Source: a virus. From it: 15,180 bases of DNA. Position numbers and translations under genes: made by a program. This document shows, one piece after another, positions 2,377-15,101 of this stretch. Where the stretch lies: the UHGV virus genome UHGV-0058267. One strand, 5' to 3'. The notes beneath the pieces are model-generated. The model did no database searches and was not told the DNA's origin. It worked only from the letters and a program-made list of their open reading frames with translations. The stretch's first letter is position 1. The number at the start of each line of letters is the position of its first letter.

Positions 2377-4787
2377 GTCATGACGATATGAGCAACTCTA
2401 GCGGCTTTAACGAGGCCGCTGCAGCATTTTCATGGAACGGCCCGAAAAAGGCCATTAACCCTTATCTGGACCCGGCGGAAGTTGCGCCGGAGTCTGCACT
2501 TTCAAACCTGATCACTCTGTACGCTGCCGATAATGAGCAGGAACAGCTGCGCCGCGATGCACTGAGTGAGCAGGTCTGGGAGCGTTATTTCTTTAATGAA
2601 TCTCGTGATCCTGTCCAGCGCGAAATGGAGCAGGATAAGCTCATTAGCCGGGCAAAGCTGGCGCATGAACAGCAGCGTTTTAACCCGGACATGGTCATTC
2701 TGGCGGACGTCAGCGCCCAGCCCACCCATATTAGCAAGCAGCTGATGCAACGTATCGAATACTTCAGCAGCCTGGGCAGGCCAAAGGCTTATTCCCGCTA
2801 TTTGCGTGAGACGATTAAGCCATGTCTGGAGCGACTGGATTGTGTACGTGACAGTCAGCTGTCTGCTTCTTTCCGTTTTATGGCAAGCCATCAAGGGATG
2901 GAGGGCCTGCTGATCCTGCCTGAAATGAGTCAGGATCAGGTGAAACGCCTGTCCACCCTGGTAGCTGCGCATATGAGCATGTGCCTTGATGCAGCTTGTG
3001 GCGATTTGTATGCCACCGATGACGTTAAGCCAGAAGAAATCCGCAAGACATGGGAAAAGGTGGCGGCGGAAACCCTGCGTCTGGATGTCATCCCACCTGC
3101 GTTTGAGCAACTCCGTCGGAAAAGAAACCGCCGTAAACCCGTGCCCTATGAACTCATTCCGGGTTCGCTGGCGCGTATGTTGTGCGCCGACTGGTGGTAT
3201 CGGAAATTATGGAAGATGCGTTGCGAATGGCGGGAAGAGCAGTTGCGTGCTGTCTGCCTGGTCAGCAAAAAAGCATCTCCCTATGTCAGCTATGAAGCCG
3301 TGATGCATAAACGTGAGCAGCGCCGTAAGTCGCTGGAGTTTTTCCGTTCTCATGAACTGGTGAACGAAGACGGCGACACGCTGGACATGGAGGATGTGGT
3401 AAACGCCAGCAGCAGCAACCCTGCGCATCGCCGCAATGAGATGATGGCCTGTGTTAAAGGTCTGGAGCTTATCGCGGAAATGCGCGGTGACTGCGCCGTT
3501 TTCTACACTATCACCTGTCCGTCACGTTTCCATTCCACGCTCAACAACGGCAGACCCAACCCGACCTGGACAAATGCGACGGTAAGACAAAGCAGCGATT
3601 ATCTGGTCGGCATGTTTGCTGCATTTCGTAAGGCAATGCACAAAACCGGGTTGCGCTGGTATGGCGTGCGGGTGGCTGAGCCGCACCATGACGGTACTGT
3701 GCACTGGCATCTCATGTGCTTCATGCGTAAAAAAGACCGCCGCGCCATCACTGCATTACTGCGTAAGTTTGCCATCCGTGTAGACCGCGAGGAGCTGGGC
3801 AACAACACGGGGCCACGCTTTAAGTCTGAGCTGATTAACCCGCGCAAAGGAACACCGACAAGCTACATCGCGAAATACATCAGTAAGAACATTGACGGGC
3901 GTGGTCTGGCTGGCGAGATCAGCAAGGAAACGGGTAAATCCCTGCGTGATAACGCCGAATACGTTAATGCCTGGGCGTCTCTGCATCGTGTTCAGCAGTT
4001 CCGCTTCTTTGGTATTCCGGGACGTCAGGCTTACCGTGAACTTCGCTTGCTGGCTGGTCAGGCGGCAAGGCAACAGGGTGACAAAAAAGCAGGTGCGCCG
4101 ATACTGGATGACCCGCGCCTTGATGCCATCCTGGCTGCTGCTGATGCTGGTTGTTTTGCCACCTACATCATGAAGCAGGGCGGCGTACTGGTTCCCCGTA
4201 AATATCACCTTATCAGAACCGCTTATGAAATCAACGAAGAGCCGACCGCCTATGGCGATCACGGCATTCGTATTTATGGCATCTGGTCACCCATTGCAGA
4301 GGGCAAGATCTGCACTCATGCAGTGAAGTGGAAAATGGTTCGTAAGGCCGTTGACGTTCAGGAGGCGGTAGCCGACCAGGGCGCTTGCGCCCCTTGGACT
4401 CGTGGCAATAACTGTCCCCTTGCTGAAAATTTGAACCAACAGGAGAAAGATAAATCAGCAGATGGGGACCCCAGAACGGATATTATCAGCATGGATGACA
4501 AGGAGTTGCACGATTTCCTGCACAGTATGAGCAAAAAAGAGCGCCGGGAACTGGCAGAAAGGCTTCGCCTGGTTAAACCGATACGGCGTAAAGACTACAA
4601 ACAGCGAATTACAGACCATCAGCGACTGCAGCTCGTCTATGAGCTGAAGTCCAGAGGATTTGATGGTAGCGAGAAAGAGGTCGATTTACTCCTTCGCGGC
4701 GGCAGTATTCCGTCAGGAGCAGGCCTGCGTATCTTCTATCGGAACCAGCGTTTGCGGGAAGATGATAAGTGGCGGAACCTGTATTAA
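2373..4787 (+). CDS. A: P2 gpA-like rolling-circle replication initiator (HUH endonuclease)
   Basis: 804-aa ORF; HUH-type motif VHWHLM and paired tyrosines YIAKYISK; size and position match the P2-family A gene. Confidence 0.85.
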
Positions 4788-5462: not shown

Positions 5463-6020
5463 TCACATAAACATCTGGATTTGCTCGTTTTTTAGTTGGT
5501 TGATTTTTTCGCGCAATCTGATCTTTTCATCAGCTTTTTCCAAAGAGGCTGGTGACATGCAGTTAATCAAAGCGTCAAGGTGCTCTGGAGATTTGATAAT
5601 AAAGAACTTTTTGTATTTATTAACAAAAACGACAGAGCATTTTTTACGTTTAAGAAGCTCAATCACGTTACTCAGAGTACCCGTGCTCTTCGTATCCCAA
5701 ACCATTAATCCATAATCGGCTTCTTCTGCCATTTTGAGATCTTTCGCAGTGAAAAACGCGCGAGTGCCGGCTGCATGGCTAGTACTTACTACATGTACAG
5801 GCCATGAGCCAAGATTATTGCGCGGTTTTTCTGAGCTACTGAATACTGTGGCTTTTTCACATCCAAGTTCTAGCAATACGCGTTGAACAGATGAATCAAC
5901 ACCATTGGCATCACCAACTACAATACGAAAACGCGAGTTAACAATTTTTTTCAGACGATCCACGATGAGTGTGTCAAGGTTTTTGATGGTTATTGAACCA
6001 GCAACAAATACCGTAGTCAT
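5463..6020 (-). CDS. SLOG/DprA-like Rossmann-fold protein (about 185 aa), candidate nucleotide-binding or processing component
   Basis: Likely start is the ATG at 6018-6020 (MTTVFVAGS...) with GGAG 6 nt upstream. Motifs VFVAGS and GDANGVDSSVQRVLLELG recall the G-x-A-x-G-[IV]-D core of DprA/Smf/LOG-type domains. Starts 2 nt after the upstream gene's stop. Confidence 0.45.
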   Translation of the reverse strand: MTTVFVAGSITIKNLDTLIVDRLKKIVNSRFRIVVGDANGVDSSVQRVLLELGCEKATVFSSSEKPRNNLGSWPVHVVSTSHAAGTRAFFTAKDLKMAEEADYGLMVWDTKSTGTLSNVIELLKRKKCSVVFVNKYKKFFIIKSPEHLDALINCMSPASLEKADEKIRLREKINQLKNEQIQMFM

Positions 6021-6022
6021 CA

Positions 6023-6604
6023 CTATCTCCAAGTCAAAGCTGCAACATAAATGCTTCTAACCTTAGTATAATCGTTTAGCACAGCACAAGCAGCCTCCAT
6101 AGATGCGCCTGTATGGTAGAGGTCGTCAATGATAAGGACATTCCAGTTGCCATTATTCTCAATACTGTCATTAACAGAGAACGAATTACCCAGCGCCGTG
6201 ATTTTCTCTTCTTTTGTATTCAGGTTCTTTAGCGAAGCCCCGCCGGGGGCTTTCAACAAGAGGTCATCGAAGCATGGTTTGCCAACTAGTTTGGCTAGTT
6301 CCTGAGCTATTTCGGTCACTGGCTGGCGTGCACGCTGATTAGATGCAGCCATTGGAACGATAAACCCGACATTGCTGAAATGAGGAAAGGCATGCTCTGC
6401 TAGGCATTGGGCTAAAGGCTTAACTTGTGACCAATCGTCACGGTATTTAAGCTGGAAAAGAGATTCGCCTACCTCAGTACGCTCAGTCTCAAACCGCATA
6501 TGTCCCCACTCATCGTAACCAATGGGAATGCTGCGGATGCTGTGTTTATCCATCGCAAGACCTAATTCCCAATTTCCAACAATCTGTTTTATGTTGACTT
6601 TCAT
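6023..6604 (-). CDS. phosphoribosyltransferase (PRTase)-like protein (193 aa)
   Basis: VLIIDDLYHTGAS fits the type I PRTase PRPP-binding signature (four hydrophobic residues, two acidic, then T-G); first gene of a two-gene minus-strand operon. Confidence 0.55.
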   Translation of the reverse strand: MKVNIKQIVGNWELGLAMDKHSIRSIPIGYDEWGHMRFETERTEVGESLFQLKYRDDWSQVKPLAQCLAEHAFPHFSNVGFIVPMAASNQRARQPVTEIAQELAKLVGKPCFDDLLLKAPGGASLKNLNTKEEKITALGNSFSVNDSIENNGNWNVLIIDDLYHTGASMEAACAVLNDYTKVRSIYVAALTWR

Positions 6605-6951: not shown

Positions 6952-8055
6952 ATGAAAATTATTTCAATATTTAATAATAAAGGTGGTGTAGGAAAATCCA
7001 CTCTTGGATACCATACTGCGCATGCATTGGCAGAGAAAGGTATTAAAACTTTAATGATTGACCTTGATCCACAGTCGAATCTCACTTTACAGTGTATTTC
7101 TCCTGAGGAGTTAGAAAAGTTATGGCTAGAAGAAGAGCCATTTATTGAGGACTTCCAATCAGCTTTAGAGGAAAGTAAACTTTCGTATCAAGATTTTTTG
7201 AGTAAGCCGAGAAGCATTCATTGCTTATTAAAACCAATAGAAGATGGCGTCTACGAATCTTCTTCACTAAGTTCTGTTTATGAGCTTAATGATAAATTAG
7301 GTATTATTCCAGGTCGTTTAAGTTTGCATAAATATGAGGATAAAATCGCGAAGGGTTGGAGTGATGCCTTCATGGGAGAACCTCAAGCACTGCGACTTAT
7401 TACCAGTATTAGGAACTTATGTCTAGAAGCAGAGGAAAAATTTGGTTATGAAATGGTAATAATAGACACATCTCCTAGTCTCGGTATGCTTAACAGAGTT
7501 ATCATTTCTACATCAACCGGATTTTTTGTCCCATGCATGCCCGATATGTTCTCCACCTTTGGGATTACTAACATAGGAGAGTCATTAAAGAATTGGAAAA
7601 ATCAGTTCGATACCATGTATAAACTTTTGCCTGATAAAAAGAGAAATGTTTTCCCTAAAAACTTCGTTAAGTTTTTAGGTTATACTATTTATAACGCGAA
7701 GAAATATGAAGGCAGAAATGAACTTGATTTAGCGACCGCGCATTACTCATATGTTCAGAAAATTCCCAATGTGATCAAAAAACACATTCCTCAAGAATGT
7801 TATCAAGAGCAAGATCTTGCAGACATTTCACAACCAATTGGTGGAAAATCAGTTATTCACTCGCATAATACTCTTCCTTCTATGTCTCAAAAGTATAGGG
7901 TGCCCATATGGAAAGTTCCTTTCATCCAATCCATGAGCGCAGAAGACAGAGCCACTGTTTCAGGTAATAGACAGACTTTTCTTGACAAGCAGCAGGCATA
8001 TAGTGATTTTGCCGATTCTCTTTTGGCTCGTATTGATAAGATTGGAGAAGAATAG
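6952..8055 (+). CDS. ParA/MinD-family ATPase (367 aa)
   Basis: Deviant Walker A NNKGGVGKST near the N-terminus and Walker B-like MVIIDTSPS; strongly AT-rich coding sequence. Confidence 0.8.
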   Translation: MKIISIFNNKGGVGKSTLGYHTAHALAEKGIKTLMIDLDPQSNLTLQCISPEELEKLWLEEEPFIEDFQSALEESKLSYQDFLSKPRSIHCLLKPIEDGVYESSSLSSVYELNDKLGIIPGRLSLHKYEDKIAKGWSDAFMGEPQALRLITSIRNLCLEAEEKFGYEMVIIDTSPSLGMLNRVIISTSTGFFVPCMPDMFSTFGITNIGESLKNWKNQFDTMYKLLPDKKRNVFPKNFVKFLGYTIYNAKKYEGRNELDLATAHYSYVQKIPNVIKKHIPQECYQEQDLADISQPIGGKSVIHSHNTLPSMSQKYRVPIWKVPFIQSMSAEDRATVSGNRQTFLDKQQAYSDFADSLLARIDKIGEE

Positions 8056-8057
8056 TT

Positions 8058-8735
8058 ATGGCTCTTAAAGAAAAATATGCGGACATTTATAGGCGTCTTA
8101 AAGATGAGATCGATGCCTATGAATATTTCATGAAGAATATTAAAAATTTTTTCGAGTCAACTAAAGTAAAAGCTCATGTCCATTCACTTCGTTTTAGGTT
8201 GAAAGATATTGATCATCTTTTAGAGAAAATAGAAAGAAAAAACCATGAGGATGATCAGTTACCTGAAGCAGAGCGAAAAGGTCATATCACAGCTGAAAAT
8301 ATTTTTAACCGTATAACGGATATAGCTGGAATAAGAGTATTACACCTTCATTTAAGTCAAATGGAAGATATACATCGTGCAATTATGAGGGCAGTAGATG
8401 AAGGGGAGTATGCGCTTTTTGAAGAGCCAAAGGCATATACTTGGGATCCTGAGTCCAAAGTTTATTTTGAGAGTTTGGGTCTTAAGCCTCATGTAAAACA
8501 AAGTTTTTATACGAGCATTCATTATGTCCTGAAACCTAATAGAGAAGGGAGTGTTACTTGTTGTGAAGTTCAAGTCAGAACTCTTCTTGAGGAGGTTTGG
8601 GGGGAAATTGATCATACAATGAATTATCCTATCCAGCATGTCGATGAGAACTGCAAAGAACAGATAAAAATTCTTGCTAGACTGATTGGCGCTGGAAGTC
8701 ATTTAGCTGATTCAATTATGAAACGCTATCAATGA
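8058..8735 (+). CDS. RelA/SpoT-type nucleotidyltransferase (small alarmone synthetase / toxSAS-like, 225 aa)
   Basis: Synthetase-domain motifs in canonical order: R-x-K...K (RFRLKDIDHLLEK), D-x-x-G-x-R (DIAGIRV), Y-x-S-x-H (YTSIHYV), E-x-Q-x-R-T...W...H (EVQVRTLLEEVWGEIDH). Start is 2 nt after the ParA-like stop with GGAGAA upstream. Confidence 0.7.
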   Translation: MALKEKYADIYRRLKDEIDAYEYFMKNIKNFFESTKVKAHVHSLRFRLKDIDHLLEKIERKNHEDDQLPEAERKGHITAENIFNRITDIAGIRVLHLHLSQMEDIHRAIMRAVDEGEYALFEEPKAYTWDPESKVYFESLGLKPHVKQSFYTSIHYVLKPNREGSVTCCEVQVRTLLEEVWGEIDHTMNYPIQHVDENCKEQIKILARLIGAGSHLADSIMKRYQ

Positions 8736-8766: not shown

Positions 8767-9141
8767 TTAAATAAGTTTGTAGTCTTCAAAGTTTATTATC
8801 GGCTCATCTAACCATTTGTTAATCTCCTCAATTCTCTTTTGAAGAGGTTTAAGTTCGTTCCTAACAAAAACCATACTAGCCTTCTCCACATCCCCAAACC
8901 CCCCAACATTATTAGGCATAATCCCCATCATTTGCGGCGGCACGCGGTGCGCAGCCATCATGTCATCGCGGCTGACATTTTTGATATTCAGAAACTCATC
9001 CTTCGCCGCCACCTCTGACAACGGGATAATCTGAAGCCCGTCCTTTTTGCCGTTAGGCGAGTACATAAATAGGTTGCGGAAGTTACCCAGGGCGGCGGAG
9101 CGATGAGTTCTAACGGGATCGTGGTTGATGCGCATCAGCAT
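8767..9141 (-). pseudogene. Q: 3' remnant of a P2-family portal (gpQ-like) gene; 5' two-thirds missing
   Basis: 124-aa frame whose sequence (PNGKKDGLQIIPLSE...MGIMPNNVGGFGDVEKA) resembles the C-terminal region of P2-family portal proteins as recalled. Expected gene is about 340 codons; the frame ends about 40 bp from the divergent gpW start. Confidence 0.5.
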
Positions 9142-9182
9142 ACTGGCGTCCTGAAAGGCGGCGATACAACCGGAGGCCCGGT

Positions 9183-9542
9183 ATGACGCTTTATAGCGGG
9201 ATGAACAATACCAGCGGTAAAGCTATTACTGATATTGACCATCTGCGCCAGTCGGTGCGGGACATTCTGCTGACACCGCAGGGTAGCCGTATTGCCCGCC
9301 GGGAATATGGTTCCCTGCTGTCGGCACTGATAGATCAGCCACAAAATCCGGCATTACGCCTGCAGGTCATGTCGGCAGTGTATGTGGCGCTGAGTCGCTG
9401 GGAGCCACGGTTGACGCTGGATTCCATCACCATCAACAGCAATTTTGACGGTTCAATGGTGGTGGAGCTGACCGGGCGGCGGAATAACGGTGTGCCTGTG
9501 TCCCTTTCCGTATCAACAGGAGCAGAGAATGGCAGTGATTGA
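9183..9542 (+). CDS. W: baseplate protein gpW (gp25-like)
   Basis: 119 aa with GGAGG upstream; size and position upstream of J-I-H match P2 gpW; overlaps the gpJ start. Confidence 0.75.
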   Translation: MTLYSGMNNTSGKAITDIDHLRQSVRDILLTPQGSRIARREYGSLLSALIDQPQNPALRLQVMSAVYVALSRWEPRLTLDSITINSNFDGSMVVELTGRRNNGVPVSLSVSTGAENGSD

Positions 9543-10437
9543 CCTTTCGCAGTTGCCTGCGCCGCAGATTGTGGATGTGCCGAACTTTGAGACGCTGCTT
9601 GCCGAACGCAAGGCAGAATTTGTGGCGCTTCATCCGAAAGATGAGCAGGAGGCTGTGATCCGCACGCTGGAACTGGAATCTGAACCCGTCACCAAATTGC
9701 TGCAGGAGAACGCTTACCGTGAGTTGCTTCTGCGCCAGCGCATTAACGAAGCCGCGCAGGCGGTGATGGTGGCTTACGCGATGGGCGGCGATCTTGACCA
9801 GCTCGCTGCCAACTACAACGTGACACGCCTGACGGTGACGCCTGCTGATAATGATGCTGTGCCGCCCGTTGCAGCTGTGATGGAAAGCGATGAAGCGTTA
9901 CGCCTGCGTGTGCCTGCAGCCTTTGAGGGGCTTTCAGTTGCGGGGCCAACTGCAGCTTATGAATTTCATGCCCGAAGCGCCGACGGTCGGGTGGCGGATG
10001 CCAGTGCAACCAGCCCGGCACCTGCAGAGGTGGTGCTGACTGTCCTTAGCCGCGAAGGCGATGGAACAGCAGAAAAAGACCTGCTGGATGTGGTGGAGAA
10101 AGCCCTGAACAGTGAGAACGTCCGCCCGGTGGCTGACCGTCTGACGGTTCGCAGTGCAGAAATCATCCCGTACCGCGTGGAAGCTACCATTTTTCTCTAT
10201 CCGGGGCCGGAAGCAGAGCCGGTAATGGCAGCGGCAAAAGCCAGCCTGCAGAAGTACATCGCCAGTCAGACGCGTCTTGGTCGGGATATTCGCCGTAGCG
10301 CCATTTTTGCCGCGCTGCATGTTGAGGGTGTTCAGCGTGTGGAACTGGCTTCCCCGCTGGCGGATGTGGTCCTGAACAAAACGCAGGCGGCATCATGTAC
10401 GGAGTGGAGCGTGACCAACGGGGGAACGGATGAATAG
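9529..10437 (+). CDS. J: baseplate assembly protein gpJ
   Basis: ATG at 9529 (MAVIDLSQLPAPQ...) gives about 302 aa, matching P2 gpJ length and N-terminus as recalled; overlaps neighbours on both sides. Confidence 0.8.
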   Translation: MAVIDLSQLPAPQIVDVPNFETLLAERKAEFVALHPKDEQEAVIRTLELESEPVTKLLQENAYRELLLRQRINEAAQAVMVAYAMGGDLDQLAANYNVTRLTVTPADNDAVPPVAAVMESDEALRLRVPAAFEGLSVAGPTAAYEFHARSADGRVADASATSPAPAEVVLTVLSREGDGTAEKDLLDVVEKALNSENVRPVADRLTVRSAEIIPYRVEATIFLYPGPEAEPVMAAAKASLQKYIASQTRLGRDIRRSAIFAALHVEGVQRVELASPLADVVLNKTQAASCTEWSVTNGGTDE

Positions 10438-11035
10438 TCTGCTGCCACCGGGTTCAACACCACTGGAGCGCCGACTGGCACAAACCTGCAGCGGGATTTC
10501 TGATCTGCAGGTGCCGCTTCGTGACTTGTGGAATCCGGCAACCTGTCCGGTCAGTTTCCTGCCTTATCTCGCCTGGGCTTTCTCTGTGGATCGCTGGGAC
10601 GAGGGCTGGACAGAAAGCGTCAAACGCCAGGTGGTGAAGGATGCTTTTTATATTCATCAGCATAAAGGGACCACCAGTGCCGTGCGGCGGGTGGTGGAGC
10701 CGTTCGGATTCCTGATCCGCATTATTGAGTGGTGGCAGACCGGAGAAACACCGGGCACGTTTCGCCTGGATATTGGCGTGCAGGACCAGGGCATCACTGA
10801 AGATACCTATCTGGAACTTGAGCGGCTGATAAGCGATGCCAAACCATGCAGCCGTCACATGACTGGCATGTCCATCAATCTGCAGACCAGCGGTCCGCAT
10901 TGGGTAGGGGCTGCCAGCTATCTTGGCGAAGAAATCACGATCTATCCGTATATCAACGAAACGATTATTTCCGGTGGCACCGCGCATGAAGGCGGGGCGG
11001 TCCATGTTATTGACACAATGAGAGTGAATCCATGA
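10430..11035 (+). CDS. I: tail/baseplate protein gpI
   Basis: 201-aa ORF translationally coupled between J and H (overlap ATGAATAG at 10430-10437); conserved P2-family order. Confidence 0.7.
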   Translation: MNSLLPPGSTPLERRLAQTCSGISDLQVPLRDLWNPATCPVSFLPYLAWAFSVDRWDEGWTESVKRQVVKDAFYIHQHKGTTSAVRRVVEPFGFLIRIIEWWQTGETPGTFRLDIGVQDQGITEDTYLELERLISDAKPCSRHMTGMSINLQTSGPHWVGAASYLGEEITIYPYINETIISGGTAHEGGAVHVIDTMRVNP

Positions 11036-12774
11036 GCACAAAATTTTATACCCTGCTGACGGAGATTGGTGCGGCGAAGCTTGCCAGCGCCACTGCACTT
11101 GGTGTGCCGCTTAAAATTACCCATATGGCGGTGGGGGATGGCGGCGGAGCATTGCCGACGCCGGACGCAAAGCAGACTGCACTGGTAAATGAGAAACGCC
11201 GGGCTGCGCTGAATATGCTTTATATCGACCCGCAGAACAGCAGCCAGATTATTGCCGAACAGGTGATCCCTGAAAACGAGGGCGGTTGGTGGATACGTGA
11301 AGTGGGCCTGTTTGATGAGTCAGGGGCATTGATTGCCGTGGGCAACTGCCCGGAAAGCTATAAGCCGCAACTGGCTGAAGGCAGCGGGCGCACCCAGACC
11401 GTGCGTATAGTGCTGATAACCAGCTGCACGGACAATATCACCCTGAAAATCGATCCTGCCGTCGTGCTGGCAACCCGCAAGTATGTGGATGACAAGGCAC
11501 TGGAGCTGAAGGTGTATGTGGATGATCTGATGGCAAAACACCTTGCCGCACCAGATCCGCATTCACAGTACGCGCCAAAAGCCAGCCCGACATTTACCGG
11601 AACCCCCAAAGCGCCAACGCCAGCGGCAGGGAATAATACCACGCAGGTTGCGACCACCGCGTTTGTACAGGCGGCACTGACGGCTCTTATTAATGGTGCG
11701 CCAGCCACGCTGGACACACTGAAAGAAATAGCCGCAGCCATTAACAATGACCCGAAATTCAGCACCACCATTAACAATGCGCTGGCACTGAAAGCGCCGC
11801 TGTCGAGTCCGGCACTTACCGGAACGCCAACAGCACCTACTGCGGCACAGTCGGTCAACAATACACAGATTGCCACCACGGCTTTTGTGAAATCGGCGAT
11901 TGCAGCAATGGTGGGTTCTGCACCTGCGGCACTGGATACACTGAACGAACTGGCGGCGGCGCTGGGGAATGACCCGAACTTTGCCACGACAATGCTTAAT
12001 GCACTGGCAGGTAAACAACCGCTGGACAATACGCTGACTAATTTGAGTGGAAAGGATGTAGCTGGTCTTCTCACATACCTTGGTTTGGGAGAAGCCAGAT
12101 TCTCTGGTCGTTTGTTAAACACGAATATTTTTAAAAGCTCTGGAAAATATATCCCAACACCAGGGACAAAAAAGATAAGGGTCATTGCCTCTGGTGGCGG
12201 TGGCGGCGGCGGTGGGGTTCCTGAAACAACAGAAAATCAGCAGGCAACAGCCGGAGCTGGATTGAGCGGCGCATTTATTGAAGCATTTTTCGAGGTTGAT
12301 AATGATTTCGAAGTCAACGTTATTATCGGTGCTGCAGGTAAAGGGGGGGGAGCCGGAGGAAATTCAGGTAGTGAAGGTGGCACAACTTATTTCGGTTCCA
12401 TGATAACTGCACCAGGTGGTACAGGCGGTGGCGCGGGGGGAGCATCTGCAAACACATCATATATTCAGGGTATTTCATGGGGTGCCAGTCCGACATCGTC
12501 CGGTACAGTACTAAGAGCATTTCGCTGTAGTGCAAAAACACCAGGAGCAATGGTTATCTCTGTTAAAGCTGTAGCAGGTGGTACCGGGGGGGATACACCA
12601 TTAGGTTCAGGCGGTATAGGTGGTGCAAGTTCTTCATCATTCAGCGGACGTGGTGGTGGTAAAGCTGAGGGCTTTGGTGCTGGCGGAGGCGGAGCCTGCG
12701 CACCTGCTGGAAGTGAGGCTCAATCGGGAGGTGACGGTGCCCCGGGAATAGTTATTGTTGAGGAGTATGCCTGA
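11032..12774 (+). CDS. H: tail fibre protein gpH: constant N-terminal part plus currently expressed glycine-rich variable C-terminal part
   Basis: 580 aa; N-terminus MSTKFYTLLTEIGAAKLASA resembles P2 gpH as recalled; the left inversion site lies in-frame at 12068-12093; C-terminal about 227 aa are Gly-rich and lower in GC. Confidence 0.8.
   Translation: MSTKFYTLLTEIGAAKLASATALGVPLKITHMAVGDGGGALPTPDAKQTALVNEKRRAALNMLYIDPQNSSQIIAEQVIPENEGGWWIREVGLFDESGALIAVGNCPESYKPQLAEGSGRTQTVRIVLITSCTDNITLKIDPAVVLATRKYVDDKALELKVYVDDLMAKHLAAPDPHSQYAPKASPTFTGTPKAPTPAAGNNTTQVATTAFVQAALTALINGAPATLDTLKEIAAAINNDPKFSTTINNALALKAPLSSPALTGTPTAPTAAQSVNNTQIATTAFVKSAIAAMVGSAPAALDTLNELAAALGNDPNFATTMLNALAGKQPLDNTLTNLSGKDVAGLLTYLGLGEARFSGRLLNTNIFKSSGKYIPTPGTKKIRVIASGGGGGGGGVPETTENQQATAGAGLSGAFIEAFFEVDNDFEVNVIIGAAGKGGGAGGNSGSEGGTTYFGSMITAPGGTGGGAGGASANTSYIQGISWGASPTSSGTVLRAFRCSAKTPGAMVISVKAVAGGTGGDTPLGSGGIGGASSSSFSGRGGGKAEGFGAGGGGACAPAGSEAQSGGDGAPGIVIVEEYA
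12068..12093. repeat. left 26-bp invertase crossover site (gix/hix-like)
   Basis: ttctcacatacc-tt-ggtttgggagaa: two 12-bp half-sites around a 2-bp core, fitting the TTnTCnnAAACC half-site pattern of Gin/Hin/Cin/Pin sites as recalled. Inverted copy at 13523-13548, with a 21-bp perfect inverted match (12080-12100 versus 13516-13536). Confidence 0.6.
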
Positions 12775-13040
12775 TGAGTAATTTTGCTCTGATTGAACAT
12801 GGCGTGGTGAAAAATATTATTATCTGGGATGGAGAGGGTGATTTATTCTCTAATTGCGAAATTATAAATATTGATCATATAGATGCAGGCGTCGGTTGGT
12901 TCTATTCTGACGGAGAGTTTATAGCACCACCGGAACCGGAAATGACTGAATATGATGTTGGTAACATCGACGCGGTGATGGAAGCAGATACCAGCACCGC
13001 GCCGGGGGTTATCTGGCCAGTTCCACCTGAGATGGTTTAA
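12774..13040 (+). CDS. small protein coupled to gpH, putative tail-fibre assembly/chaperone protein for the expressed fibre variant
   Basis: Start overlaps the gpH stop (TGATG at 12772-12776) with GAGGAG upstream; 88 aa; function inferred from position only. Confidence 0.4.
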   Translation: MSNFALIEHGVVKNIIIWDGEGDLFSNCEIINIDHIDAGVGWFYSDGEFIAPPEPEMTEYDVGNIDAVMEADTSTAPGVIWPVPPEMV

Positions 13041-13269
13041 TCTCAATCAGAATGGGTTCGCCATTCTCGTTAACAGATATTTCCATTCCTTCAGGGATTT
13101 CAGATGCAGTAAAAAACCAGTTATCTTCTGGTAATTCCACAGCCCCGGTCACGTCATGAAGACCGGGGATTACTTCAGTCAAAGTAACAGGATTAAACAG
13201 GCGCACAATAAACTCTCCAGGAAAAAGCACTTGTTGATGGTCTTCCGTCGTACATCTGGCAGCGGACAT
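13009..13269 (-). CDS. small protein, putative tail-fibre assembly/chaperone protein of the silent cassette
   Basis: Minus-strand ORF converging on 12774-13040 (about 30-nt overlap at the 3' ends). Start codon uncertain (ATG at 13269, GTG at 13230, or the tracked start at 13296); overlaps the end of the silent fibre cassette. Confidence 0.3.
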   Translation of the reverse strand: MSAARCTTEDHQQVLFPGEFIVRLFNPVTLTEVIPGLHDVTGAVELPEDNWFFTASEIPEGMEISVNENGEPILIEIKPSQVELAR

Positions 13270-13534
13270 AAAAACCTGTATTACTGACCTGGTCATCCAC
13301 GATCATTGAAACGTGAACGTTATTAGGTGTGGCCTCGTAATCTGTTCTTATTCTTTCCGCTATGCTGATAAAACGTGAAAGCTTAGGTAGTGCAATTGGA
13401 TAAACGACTTTAGCCAGCCCATTATCATTGGAACCACCAGTTCCAAATACTTCTATTGCACCATCTGACCAGCGTATCCATGCACCATTGACATTAGCTC
13501 CTCGCTGAATGACATATCTGGCTTCTCCCAAACC
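13193..13534 (-). CDS. silent alternative tail-fibre C-terminal cassette, promoterless and start-less in this orientation
   Basis: The minus-strand frame reads ...GLGEAR-YVIQRGANVNG... through the right crossover site, and the same GLGEAR junction is encoded in gpH at the left site (LTYLGLGEAR). Inversion would fuse about 110 alternative codons onto the gpH constant part. Confidence 0.55.
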   Translation of the reverse strand, partial: GLGEARYVIQRGANVNGAWIRWSDGAIEVFGTGGSNDNGLAKVVYPIALPKLSRFISIAERIRTDYEATPNNVHVSMIVDDQVSNTGFYVRCQMYDGRPSTSAFSWRVYCAPV

Positions 13535-13548
13535 AACGTTTAAGAAAA
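13523..13548. repeat. right 26-bp invertase crossover site (gix/hix-like)
   Basis: ttctcccaaacc-aa-cgtttaagaaaa; inverted relative to 12068-12093; about 55 bp upstream of the invertase start. Confidence 0.6.
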
Positions 13549-13603
13549 TGCAGAGATTACGGCTAACTGGCATCATCTCCGGTTTTTATTCAGGGGGATG
13601 ATC

Positions 13604-14170
13604 ATGCTTATTGGCTATGTACGCGTGTCAACAAATGACCAGAACACCGATTTGCAACGTAATGCACTGAACTGCGCGGGATGTGAGCGGATTTTTGAGG
13701 ACAAAATCAGTGGCACTAAGTCCGACAGACCGGGGCTGAAAAAACTGCTCAGGACACTATCGGCAGGAGACACGCTGGTTGTCTGGAAGCTGGACCGGTT
13801 GGGGCGCAGTATGCGGCATCTTGTTACGCTGATAGAAGAGTTGCGCCAGCGTGGCGTGAATTTCCGAAGCCTGACTGACAGTATTGATACCAGTACCCCA
13901 ATGGGCCGTTTCTTTTTTCATGTCATGGGTGCCCTGGCTGAAATGGAACGCGAACTGATAGTTGAACGTACCAGGGCAGGGCTGGCTGCAGCTCGTGTTA
14001 AAGGCAGAGTAGGTGGACGCCGTCCTAAGTTGACCAGCGAACAGTGGGCACAGATTGGGCGTTTACTCGAGGCCGGAGAATCAAGACAGCGTATTGCACT
14101 GATTTTTGATGTAGGCGTTTCTACCATTTATCGAAAATTTCTGGCAAATAAGAGCAATGAATCTCCCTGA
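13604..14170 (+). CDS. serine-recombinase DNA invertase of the Gin/Hin/Cin/Pin family
   Basis: MLIGYVRVSTNDQNTDLQRNAL... is near-identical in its N-terminus to Mu Gin as recalled, with the catalytic Ser in RVSTNDQ and a C-terminal helix-turn-helix region; about 189 aa. Confidence 0.9.
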   Translation: MLIGYVRVSTNDQNTDLQRNALNCAGCERIFEDKISGTKSDRPGLKKLLRTLSAGDTLVVWKLDRLGRSMRHLVTLIEELRQRGVNFRSLTDSIDTSTPMGRFFFHVMGALAEMERELIVERTRAGLAAARVKGRVGGRRPKLTSEQWAQIGRLLEAGESRQRIALIFDVGVSTIYRKFLANKSNESP

Positions 14171-14312
14171 ATCAGCTTTATTTTGATTATCCCTGAAAGC
14201 AGACAAATACCGTCATTTTGTGTGAATAACGGTACAACTGCGCTTAGCTGTTTGTCAGGCACAATCACTTCAACATAGGGCGAAGCCTAATCCAATCAGG
14301 AGGTTCGCCACT

Positions 14313-15101
14313 ATGGCTCAGGATTACCACCACGGGGTGCGCGTTGTTGAAGTCAACGAAGGCACCCGATCCATTACCACGGTGAGCACAGCCATCGTGG
14401 GCATGGTCTGCACGGGCGATGATGCCGATGCAAAAATGTTTCCTCTTAATAAACCCGTACTGATCACTGATGTGCTGACTGCCAGCGGTAAAGCGGGTGA
14501 GTCCGGCACGCTGGCCCGTTCGCTGGACGCCATCGCTGACCAGGCAAAACCCGTGACCGTTGTTGTGCGTGTGCCGCAGGGTGAAACGGAAGAAGAAACC
14601 ACGACCAATATCATCGGTGCAGTGACCGCTGAAGGAAAAAAAACAGGCATGAAAGCCCTGTTATCTGCTCAGACACAGCTCGGCGTTAAACCGCGCATTC
14701 TCGGCGTGCCAGGTCATGATAACAAAGCCGTTGCTACTGAGTTGCTGAGTGTGGCGCAAAGCCTGCGTGGGTTTGCCTACCTGTCAGCATATGGCTGCAA
14801 GACGGTACAGGAGGCGATCACTTACCGTGAAAACTTCAGCCAGCGCGAAGGAATGCTGATCTGGCCTGACTTTACTGGCTGGGACACGGTGCTGAATGCC
14901 GAAGCAACGGCATATGCCACCGCCCGTGCGCTTGGTCTGCGCGCCAAAATTGATGAGCAGACCGGGTGGCACAAAAGCCTGTCCAACGTGGGCGTGAACG
15001 GTGTCACCGGAATTTCTGCAGATGTGTTCTGGGATCTGCAGGACCCGGCAACCGATGCGGGACTGCTTAACCAGAACGACGTCACCACGCTTACACGGTG
15101 A
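14313..15101 (+). CDS. FI: contractile tail sheath protein gpFI-like, apparently truncated or frameshifted at codon 262
   Basis: N-terminus MAQDYHHGVRVVEVNEGTRSIT resembles P2 FI (MSDYHHGVQVLEINEGTR...) as recalled; in-frame TGA at 15099-15101 although sheath proteins are about 390 aa; a different frame stays open from 15095 to the window end. Confidence 0.7.
   Translation: MAQDYHHGVRVVEVNEGTRSITTVSTAIVGMVCTGDDADAKMFPLNKPVLITDVLTASGKAGESGTLARSLDAIADQAKPVTVVVRVPQGETEEETTTNIIGAVTAEGKKTGMKALLSAQTQLGVKPRILGVPGHDNKAVATELLSVAQSLRGFAYLSAYGCKTVQEAITYRENFSQREGMLIWPDFTGWDTVLNAEATAYATARALGLRAKIDEQTGWHKSLSNVGVNGVTGISADVFWDLQDPATDAGLLNQNDVTTLTR

Follow-up and report, generated by a model that had tools for sequence, protein, structure and literature searches.

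Here we describe an invertible tail-fibre cassette in the virus genome UHGV-0058267, a stretch of 15,180 nucleotides that we call the window and whose coordinates are used throughout. The window is the whole of a low-coverage (3.6x) metagenome contig in the European Nucleotide Archive (ENA; ERZ1310293 NODE_2766), and it holds, at a probability that we put at about 0.9, a site-specific inversion switch of the Gin/Cin/Pin type that exchanges the distal half of a tail fibre of the P2 (gpH) type. In every respect that could be tested, the system is a member of the Gin/Cin/Pin family of invertible tail-fibre systems. The case rests on the recombination sites and the genes that they bracket and adjoin, and on the occurrence of near-identical loci in both orientations among sequenced genomes.

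In the mechanism that we propose, the invertase (13604-14170) would bind both 26-bp sites; by analogy with Gin, Hin and Cin, its activator would be host Fis, attached to an enhancer within the opening ~90 bp of the invertase gene. The activated enzyme would then cut both sites at their central TT/AA dinucleotides, rotate the strands and religate them, leaving the intervening 1453 bp inverted. Because the left site lies in frame in the fibre gene, the constant 350 N-terminal residues of the fibre (baseplate attachment and shaft) are joined to one of two tips: either tip A, ~224 glycine-rich residues followed by an open reading frame (ORF) of 88 residues, or tip B, ~107 residues resembling the pyocin foot and gp53 and followed by an ORF of 65 residues. 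The late tail operon would transcribe only the tip adjoining the constant part, and an intact prophage would be expected to give a lysate with two particle types that use different receptors. That the two orientations confer different host ranges is something that we infer from this arrangement.

Recombination sites, fibre gene and invertase

A repeat finder returned one outstanding pair of inverted repeats in the window, at 12068-12100 and 13516-13548 (33 nt, 85% complementary), with a 21-nt exact core, TTGGTTTGGGAGAAGCCAGAT, inside it. Across 100 shuffles of the window, in which the repeat arms had to be separate, the longest exact inverted repeat was 16 nt, as against 21 nt in the real sequence; the inverted repeat is far beyond chance. 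Within it lie two inverted sites of the kind that an earlier, sequence-only reading of this DNA had described, each 26 bp long and composed of two imperfect 12-bp half-sites around a 2-bp core. The left, gix-like site occupies 12068-12093 (TTCTCACATACC-TT-GGTTTGGGAGAA, core dinucleotide at 12080-12081), the right site occupies 13523-13548 (TTCTCCCAAACC-AA-CGTTTAAGAAAA on the + strand, core dinucleotide at 13535-13536), and the invertible segment of 1453 bp lies between both core dinucleotides, at 12082-13534. All four half-sites match TTxTCxxAAAC(C/G). Since the cores, TT on the left and AA on the right, are complementary on the + strand, they are identical cores in inverted orientation; in alignments, the left site is in register with gixL of phage Mu and the right site with gixR.

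These two sites could in principle belong to a multi-site shufflon with more than two tips, like Min of p15B or the three-site P2-like locus of enteropathogenic E. coli (EPEC), and such loci are indeed known in P2-like prophages (PMC4272514). However, the core pattern AAACCNNGGTTT occurs with <=1 mismatch at these two sites only in the 15-kb window, its 2-mismatch matches are at chance level, the repeat finder paired the sites with no other inverted repeat in the window, and the segment contains exactly two tip ORFs. We therefore regard a shufflon as hardly credible here, the least probable of the alternatives that we weighed. A third recombination site, searched for in the window, was not found.

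The left site lies in frame, around ...LTYLGLGEAR..., within a tail-fibre gene of the P2 gpH type (11032-12774, + strand, 580 residues), in which 11032-12081 is constant and 12082-12771 encodes the variable tip A. The first 150 residues of the fibre match PF12571, the N-terminal domain of P2-type tail-collar fibres (E 3e-64), residues 374-577 match Gly_rich_2 (PF21722), and the 580-residue protein matches tail-fibre PHROGs; an NCBIfam search assigned neither the fibre nor the tips nor the small ORFs to a family. From the right site, a frame on the minus strand reads through ...NVGLGEARYVIQ... (NVGLGEAR YVIQRG) to a stop at 13193. Both frames are thus open from a shared GLGEAR junction, as had been claimed of the two fibre C-termini, and in-silico inversion of 12082-13534 produces an uninterrupted fibre of 463 residues that replaces the one of 580 residues. 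The 463-residue fibre is annotated in strain UC4315, and both versions of the fibre are annotated in natural isolates. The variable parts differ in size much as first estimated (~227 versus ~110 codons), with 224 codons on the expressed side and 107 codons after the junction on the silent minus-strand side, or 230 versus 113 when counted from the core.

Each orientation also has its own small coupled ORF. Small ORF A (12774-13040, + strand, 88 residues) is coupled to tip A via TGATG, its ATG overlapping the fibre stop, and has GAGGAG upstream; small ORF B (13009-13206, minus strand, 65 residues from GTG 13206) is coupled to the silent tip B, whose stop it overlaps. Here too, the sequence-only reading was borne out.

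The right site lies upstream of the invertase gene, where it had been placed, with 68 bp from the right core to the invertase start codon. The gene (13604-14170, + strand, with an alternative ATG at 13598) encodes a serine DNA invertase of the Gin/Cin/Pin family, 188 residues long, with PF00239 (E 2e-52) and a C-terminal helix-turn-helix, HTH_7 (E 5e-15). Its catalytic Ser9, in a VRVST motif, aligns to Gin, and residues 1-184 match the Gin chains 3uj3 and 4m6f in the PDB at E about 1e-91; identity is 76% to Mu Gin, 79% to P1 Cin and 86% to e14 Pin (PinE). NCBIfam gave sub-threshold matches only for the invertase. Lys47 and the basic residues at 48 and 51 (helix B), together with Gln151, Arg154 and Leu155 (Hin numbering), are Fis/enhancer contacts that are kept in invertases but not in resolvases (McLean et al., PMC3798978). 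By this criterion, the helix-B basic residues RPGLKKLLR and the sequence EQWAQIGRLL (Q..RL) in helix 1 of the DNA-binding domain show that the residues of a Fis-dependent invertase are present. A promoter scan found no sigma-70-like promoter upstream of the invertase; its overall count of matches was at chance level, and the scan is uninformative on this point. Between the right site and the invertase start, at 13565-13584 (+ strand), there is a weak hairpin with a T-run, a consensus match only, that might reduce transcription running on from the late tail operon into the gene for the invertase.

Inside the 5' end of the invertase gene, 13622-13693 is a probable Fis-dependent recombinational enhancer, as judged from homology to the annotated enhancer of P1 cin. 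The P1 record places the 'enhancer of Cin-mediated C-segment inversion' at cin nt 19-90, with which 13622-13693 aligns without gaps and at the same position in the gene. Identity in this stretch is 56/72 to P1, 52/72 to Mu and 63/72 to e14, compared with 66-75% in the rest of the gene, and synonymous codon identity is 54% in the stretch versus 42% elsewhere, a modest excess that comes from four non-independent sequences. Measured from the site centre, the first Fis-like sequence is ~96 bp away; in Hin, the corresponding distance is about 100 bp (PMC3798978).

Orientation in sequenced genomes and the state of the prophage

We followed the orientation of the segment through 5,426 complete E. coli genomes, using 11900-14200 as the query both as found and with the segment inverted in silico. 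The window orientation is contiguous in 18 genome records, at 96-99.9% identity, and the opposite orientation is contiguous in 11; strain 214-4 carries two copies, one per orientation (H6, H111). Strains UC4315 and UC4316 are lambda-Red recombineered deletion derivatives of the cheese isolate UC4224 (PMC13340028), and of these three, UC4224 and UC4316 are in the window orientation and the derivative UC4315 is in the opposite one. Over 1453 bp, the segment of UC4316 matches the reverse-complemented segment of UC4315 at 100% identity, the outer half-sites remain with the flanks in both, and the flanking proteins have identical accession numbers; it follows that a clean inversion took place within a few passages in the laboratory. 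The segment of the window itself differs from those of UC4315 and UC4316 at 8 positions. Both orientations are thus found among near-identical loci, which have switched between them in the course of strain construction. The sequence-only reading would be in difficulty if no more than one orientation were ever seen; loci 98-99% identical to this one are in fact found in both, UC4315 and its parent UC4224 among them. Furthermore, inversion of a tail-fibre segment in P2-like prophages has been demonstrated experimentally in EPEC E2348/69 (PMC4272514).

Several points weigh against a Gin-type switch in the window, or limit how far it can be likened to Mu, and we take them together here. The first is that a comparison of UC4315 with UC4316 places the exchange point only to within the 21 identical bases that they share. 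This fits any mechanism that acts on the repeats, including RecA-dependent homologous recombination between the 21-bp inverted repeats, in which case the adjoining recombinase would be irrelevant. However, a 21-bp repeat is no longer than the minimum at which RecA recombination is efficient, and the sites follow the 12-2-12 layout of gix sites exactly, in the same register. The gene of a Gin orthologue, with a putative enhancer region, begins 68 bp from the site, with the spacing seen in Mu, and both orientations are common among closely related strains, implying a high rate. We consider RecA-dependent exchange very improbable, and prefer recombination by the adjoining invertase.

A second point concerns the enhancer. 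Fis binding and the enhancer are putative assignments, made by homology only; the two candidate G-N13-C sequences, 49 bp apart centre to centre, were picked by eye and give an approximate position for the Fis sites. In known enhancers, Fis sites are spaced by 48 bp.

The remaining points concern the condition of this copy and its small ORFs. The window has a P2/186-like (Peduoviridae) gene set (Phage_GPA, 186 Fil, Baseplate_J, Tail_P2_I, PF12571, Phage_sheath_1), in which an early region of Fil, DUF5347, Dam and gpA is followed by a DinI-like gene and then a cargo region; after a junction at ~9082 come W, J, I and H, and then the switch and the invertase. Positions 9082-15093 are 99.3% identical to the intact P2-type prophage of E. 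coli OkiPb01677, and two deletions mark the ends of this part. At the first, ~9082, a C-terminal fragment of the portal gene (8767-9081, minus strand) has been joined to the final ~100 bp of gpV. At the second (junction 15092-15093), the sheath gene breaks off at 15093, where 2-nt microhomology joins it to the middle of the tape-measure gene. Head, lysis and tail-tube genes have been lost, only a small remainder of gpV is left, and the sheath and tape-measure genes are each partly missing. Since the same truncated sheath of 262 residues recurs in two other assemblies made by different assemblers, the sheath/tape-measure deletion is probably real. An exact search for the sequence of that junction gave no match in genome_contigs, viral_contigs or metagenome_contigs. 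The whole window is contiguous in no complete E. coli genome, so the deletion lineage is absent from the complete E. coli genome collection. With the head, lysis and tube genes gone, this copy is unable to form particles on its own, and a host-range phenotype from it alone is unlikely; alternating host range is an ancestral function, not a current phenotype of this copy.

Does such a copy still invert? The three metagenome assemblies that carry this deletion lineage, ERZ1310293, ERZ28575295 and ERZ916264, are all in the window orientation, and inversion of this particular contig copy is predicted from related loci. Perhaps it is a frozen relic, sitting in a decaying prophage, that no longer inverts and in which the glycine-rich tip is fixed as the expressed one: the two large deletions would agree with this, as would the shared orientation of the three assemblies and the left site, which differs at one outer position from that of the UC4224 lineage, where inversion was seen. 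Yet the invertase has kept an uninterrupted reading frame and shares 186/188 residues with its counterpart in the UC4224 lineage, which does flip; the right site agrees with that of UC4316 at 26/26 positions, and the inner half-sites and cores show no differences. An assembly, moreover, reports the majority orientation only, and the defective e14 prophage of E. coli K-12 still inverts its segment (PMC4272514). We consider a frozen relic improbable, and the switch in the window is most likely, by analogy with the e14 P segment in K-12, a still-competent relic without a phenotype of its own.

As to the small ORFs, neither the 88-residue nor the 65-residue one has a Caudo_TAP match even at E <= 10, and as a control the domain gave strong matches in Goslar Tfa and in e14 TfaP/TfaE. 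The analogy to the U/U' chaperones of Mu is therefore incomplete, and the small ORFs are, judging by their sequences, not canonical Tfa chaperones of that kind. This is the one departure of the cassette from the Mu model. The Mu G-segment logic that the earlier reading had invoked holds for all structural elements, which are homologous to those of Mu, P1 and e14, but it does not extend to these ORFs.

The two tips, their partner ORFs and neighbouring genes

The two tips were modelled with AlphaFold2 and compared with known structures by Foldseek. Tip A (12100-12771, + strand), the expressed one, is a glycine-rich domain of the receptor-binding type. Its model, built with 81 homologues, reached a predicted local distance difference test score (pLDDT) of 92.6 and a predicted template modelling score (pTM) of 0.88, and it matched the fibre of cyanophage Pam3 (7ypx, E 7e-8; also 7yfw), tail-tip chains of mycobacteriophage Bxb1 and, more weakly, the glycine-rich domain of the ALK/LTK receptors. 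Tip B (13193-13534, minus strand), the silent alternative C-terminus that gives the 463-residue fibre after inversion, was modelled at a pLDDT of 76.6. Its Foldseek matches are the C-terminal 'foot' of the R1/R2 pyocin fibre (6ct8, 6cl6, 6cl5, 6cxb) and gp53 of AP22 (4mtm), in agreement with a weak match to Gp53-like_C; a word-indexed homologue search with tip B returned close relatives only. Because both modelled tips resemble known fibre-tip folds, both are plausible receptor-binding domains, and the inequality in their size is a matter of two different folds, not of decay in one half.

Inside the glycine-rich tip A there is a G8 homopolymer, at 12344-12351. The 99.9%-identical prophage of E. 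coli OkiPb01677 has G7 at this position, with a frameshift that splits the fibre in its annotation, and the UC4224 lineage reads GGTGGGGG there. The G7/G8 difference could be slipped-strand variation or a sequencing error; as a lesser possibility, the G8 run might add slipped-strand ON/OFF variation to tip A.

The start of small ORF B has several candidates. GTG 13206 has GGAGAG 6 nt upstream, and alternative ATGs lie at 13269 and 13296. In identical loci, the Prokaryotic Genome Annotation Pipeline (PGAP) calls a 198-nt ORF at ORF B, and in the 95-residue reading of this ORF the phrog_5400 match begins at residue 31, that is, at the GTG. As both the PGAP call and the PHROG match begin there, GTG 13206 is the likeliest start. 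The resulting 65-residue ORF matches the first 66 positions of phrog_5400 and has a 70%-identical relative within the invertible region of Peduovirus S164.

Small ORF A matches phrog_14370, and its residues 4-57 align with the N-terminus of the 138-residue Tfa of Goslar at 53% identity. A word-indexed search with the 88-residue ORF found close relatives only; the wider family was seen by an exhaustive search, which returned 212 cluster representatives matching residues 1 to ~60 only. The lengths in this family are bimodal, at ~55-70 residues (stand-alone) and ~125-140 residues, and the ORF A domain is found either on its own or as the N-terminus of Tfa proteins of ~130 residues. In the Klebsiella Peduoviridae phage Kp4865-2, sites arranged in the same way enclose a glycine-rich tip that differs from tip A and is followed by a 60-residue ORF of similar sequence at the place where tblastn gave a 45%-identical match to the 88-residue ORF. 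It is conceivable, and we offer it tentatively as an idea that is more probably wrong than right, that the ~60-residue domain is a minimal partner of glycine-rich tips that works without the Tfa C-terminal domain, for instance as a folding or receptor-accessory factor.

Two observations bear on the integrity of such segments. In the silent half of Kp4865-2 (OK490418.1, locus 2750-3100), what appears by eye to be an insertion-sequence transposase fragment replaces the second tip; if this is read correctly, the switch of Kp4865-2 seems to be one-sided. In the window, small ORFs A and B converge, with 3' ends that overlap by 32 nt (13009-13040), and the last ~30 residues of the 88-residue ORF lie outside the part that homologues match. 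Taken together, the convergent overlap and the unmatched tail of ORF A suggest that the middle of the segment has been compacted or partly deleted.

Away from the cassette, the P2 cargo hotspot, which here comes after the replication genes and before the portal remnant, holds, at 6952-8735 (+ strand), genes for a ParA-like ATPase (367 residues) and a RelA/SpoT-domain protein (225 residues). The pair has weak matches to the PADLOC candidate systems PDC-M28B and PDC-S33 and may be an anti-phage or toxin module. At 5463-6604 (minus strand) there are two adjoining ORFs of 189 and 193 residues. The 193-residue ORF is weakly like the phosphoribosyltransferase-type ShosT/PsyrT defence toxins (E 1e-8), and a relative of it is annotated as 'ComF family protein' in E. 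coli CFSAN061762.

Relation to known inversion systems and significance

The cassette shares most of its design with the Mu G segment/Gin and the P1 C segment/Cin. The invertases are 76-79% identical; the 26-bp sites are in the same register and lie inside the fibre gene at a conserved ..LGL.. motif; the invertase gene stands just outside the right site in the same reading direction, with a homologous enhancer region at its 5' end; and two convergent modules, each a tip with its downstream ORF, are swapped behind a constant fibre N-terminus. Spacing agrees as well: from the G-segment boundary to the start of gin, the Mu record gives 67 bp, versus 68 bp here. Unlike in Mu, the segment measures 1.45 kb rather than about 3 kb, the glycine-rich Pam3-like and pyocin-foot-like tips are unrelated to S/S', the downstream ORFs, of 88 and 65 residues, lack the Caudo_TAP of U/U', and the constant part is of the P2 gpH type (PF12571) in a P2/186-like genome.

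Among the invertases compared, the closest (86%) is PinE, which serves the P segment of e14 in E. coli K-12, likewise a defective prophage that still inverts (PMC4272514). The K-12 element differs in its tips and in having tfaP/tfaE with Caudo_TAP, and its baseplate context is of the Mu/e14 type (YmfQ, gp46/gp47-like) in contrast to the P2 W-J-I genes here. In an e14-like element of strains ECE218 and ECE228, this very cassette is found at 95% identity adjoining pinE, and in other P2-like prophages one half of it is replaced by a different tip with a Tfa gene; half-cassettes have therefore been exchanged between phage types. At the ECE218 locus (NZ_CP196308.1, 3715-6081), the cassette lies by pinE in this e14-like element, which has a Mu-type baseplate, and stfP is annotated as a pseudogene. 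The ECE218 genome also holds a P2-like copy in the opposite orientation, and two invertases with two substrates in one cell could cross-react.

A further likeness is to P2-like prophages and tailocins, such as those of EPEC E2348/69, which have a P2-type tail module and an invertase adjoining the fibre gene (PMC4272514). Both orientations were shown to coexist in culture at the EPEC loci, one of which differs from the window in having three sites and four variants, as opposed to two sites (PMC4272514). Carotovoricin Er, cited in PMC4272514 as PMC100113, is described there as following the same inversion logic.

Inversion of tail-fibre tips by Gin-family invertases has thus already been shown in P2-like prophages; the mechanism is textbook, and the present locus adds little mechanistic weight to it. 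Specific to this locus is the cargo, namely a Pam3-like glycine-rich tip, a pyocin-foot-like tip and short partner ORFs without Caudo_TAP. For annotation, it matters that PGAP gives 'hypothetical' for the silent tip and for both small ORFs, and that its fibre gene comes out split or cut short, depending on orientation. For comparative genomics, isogenic strains can differ at such a locus without any engineered change, as UC4315 does from its parent, and such a difference should not be taken for an off-target mutation. For the engineering of phages and tailocins, the cassette would offer a pair of compact modules for receptor binding, both attached to a P2 fibre shaft at a defined junction, GLGEAR. 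Finally, if the ORF A domain is indeed a minimal partner of glycine-rich tips, invertible segments can carry tip modules that are chaperone-independent or differently chaperoned.

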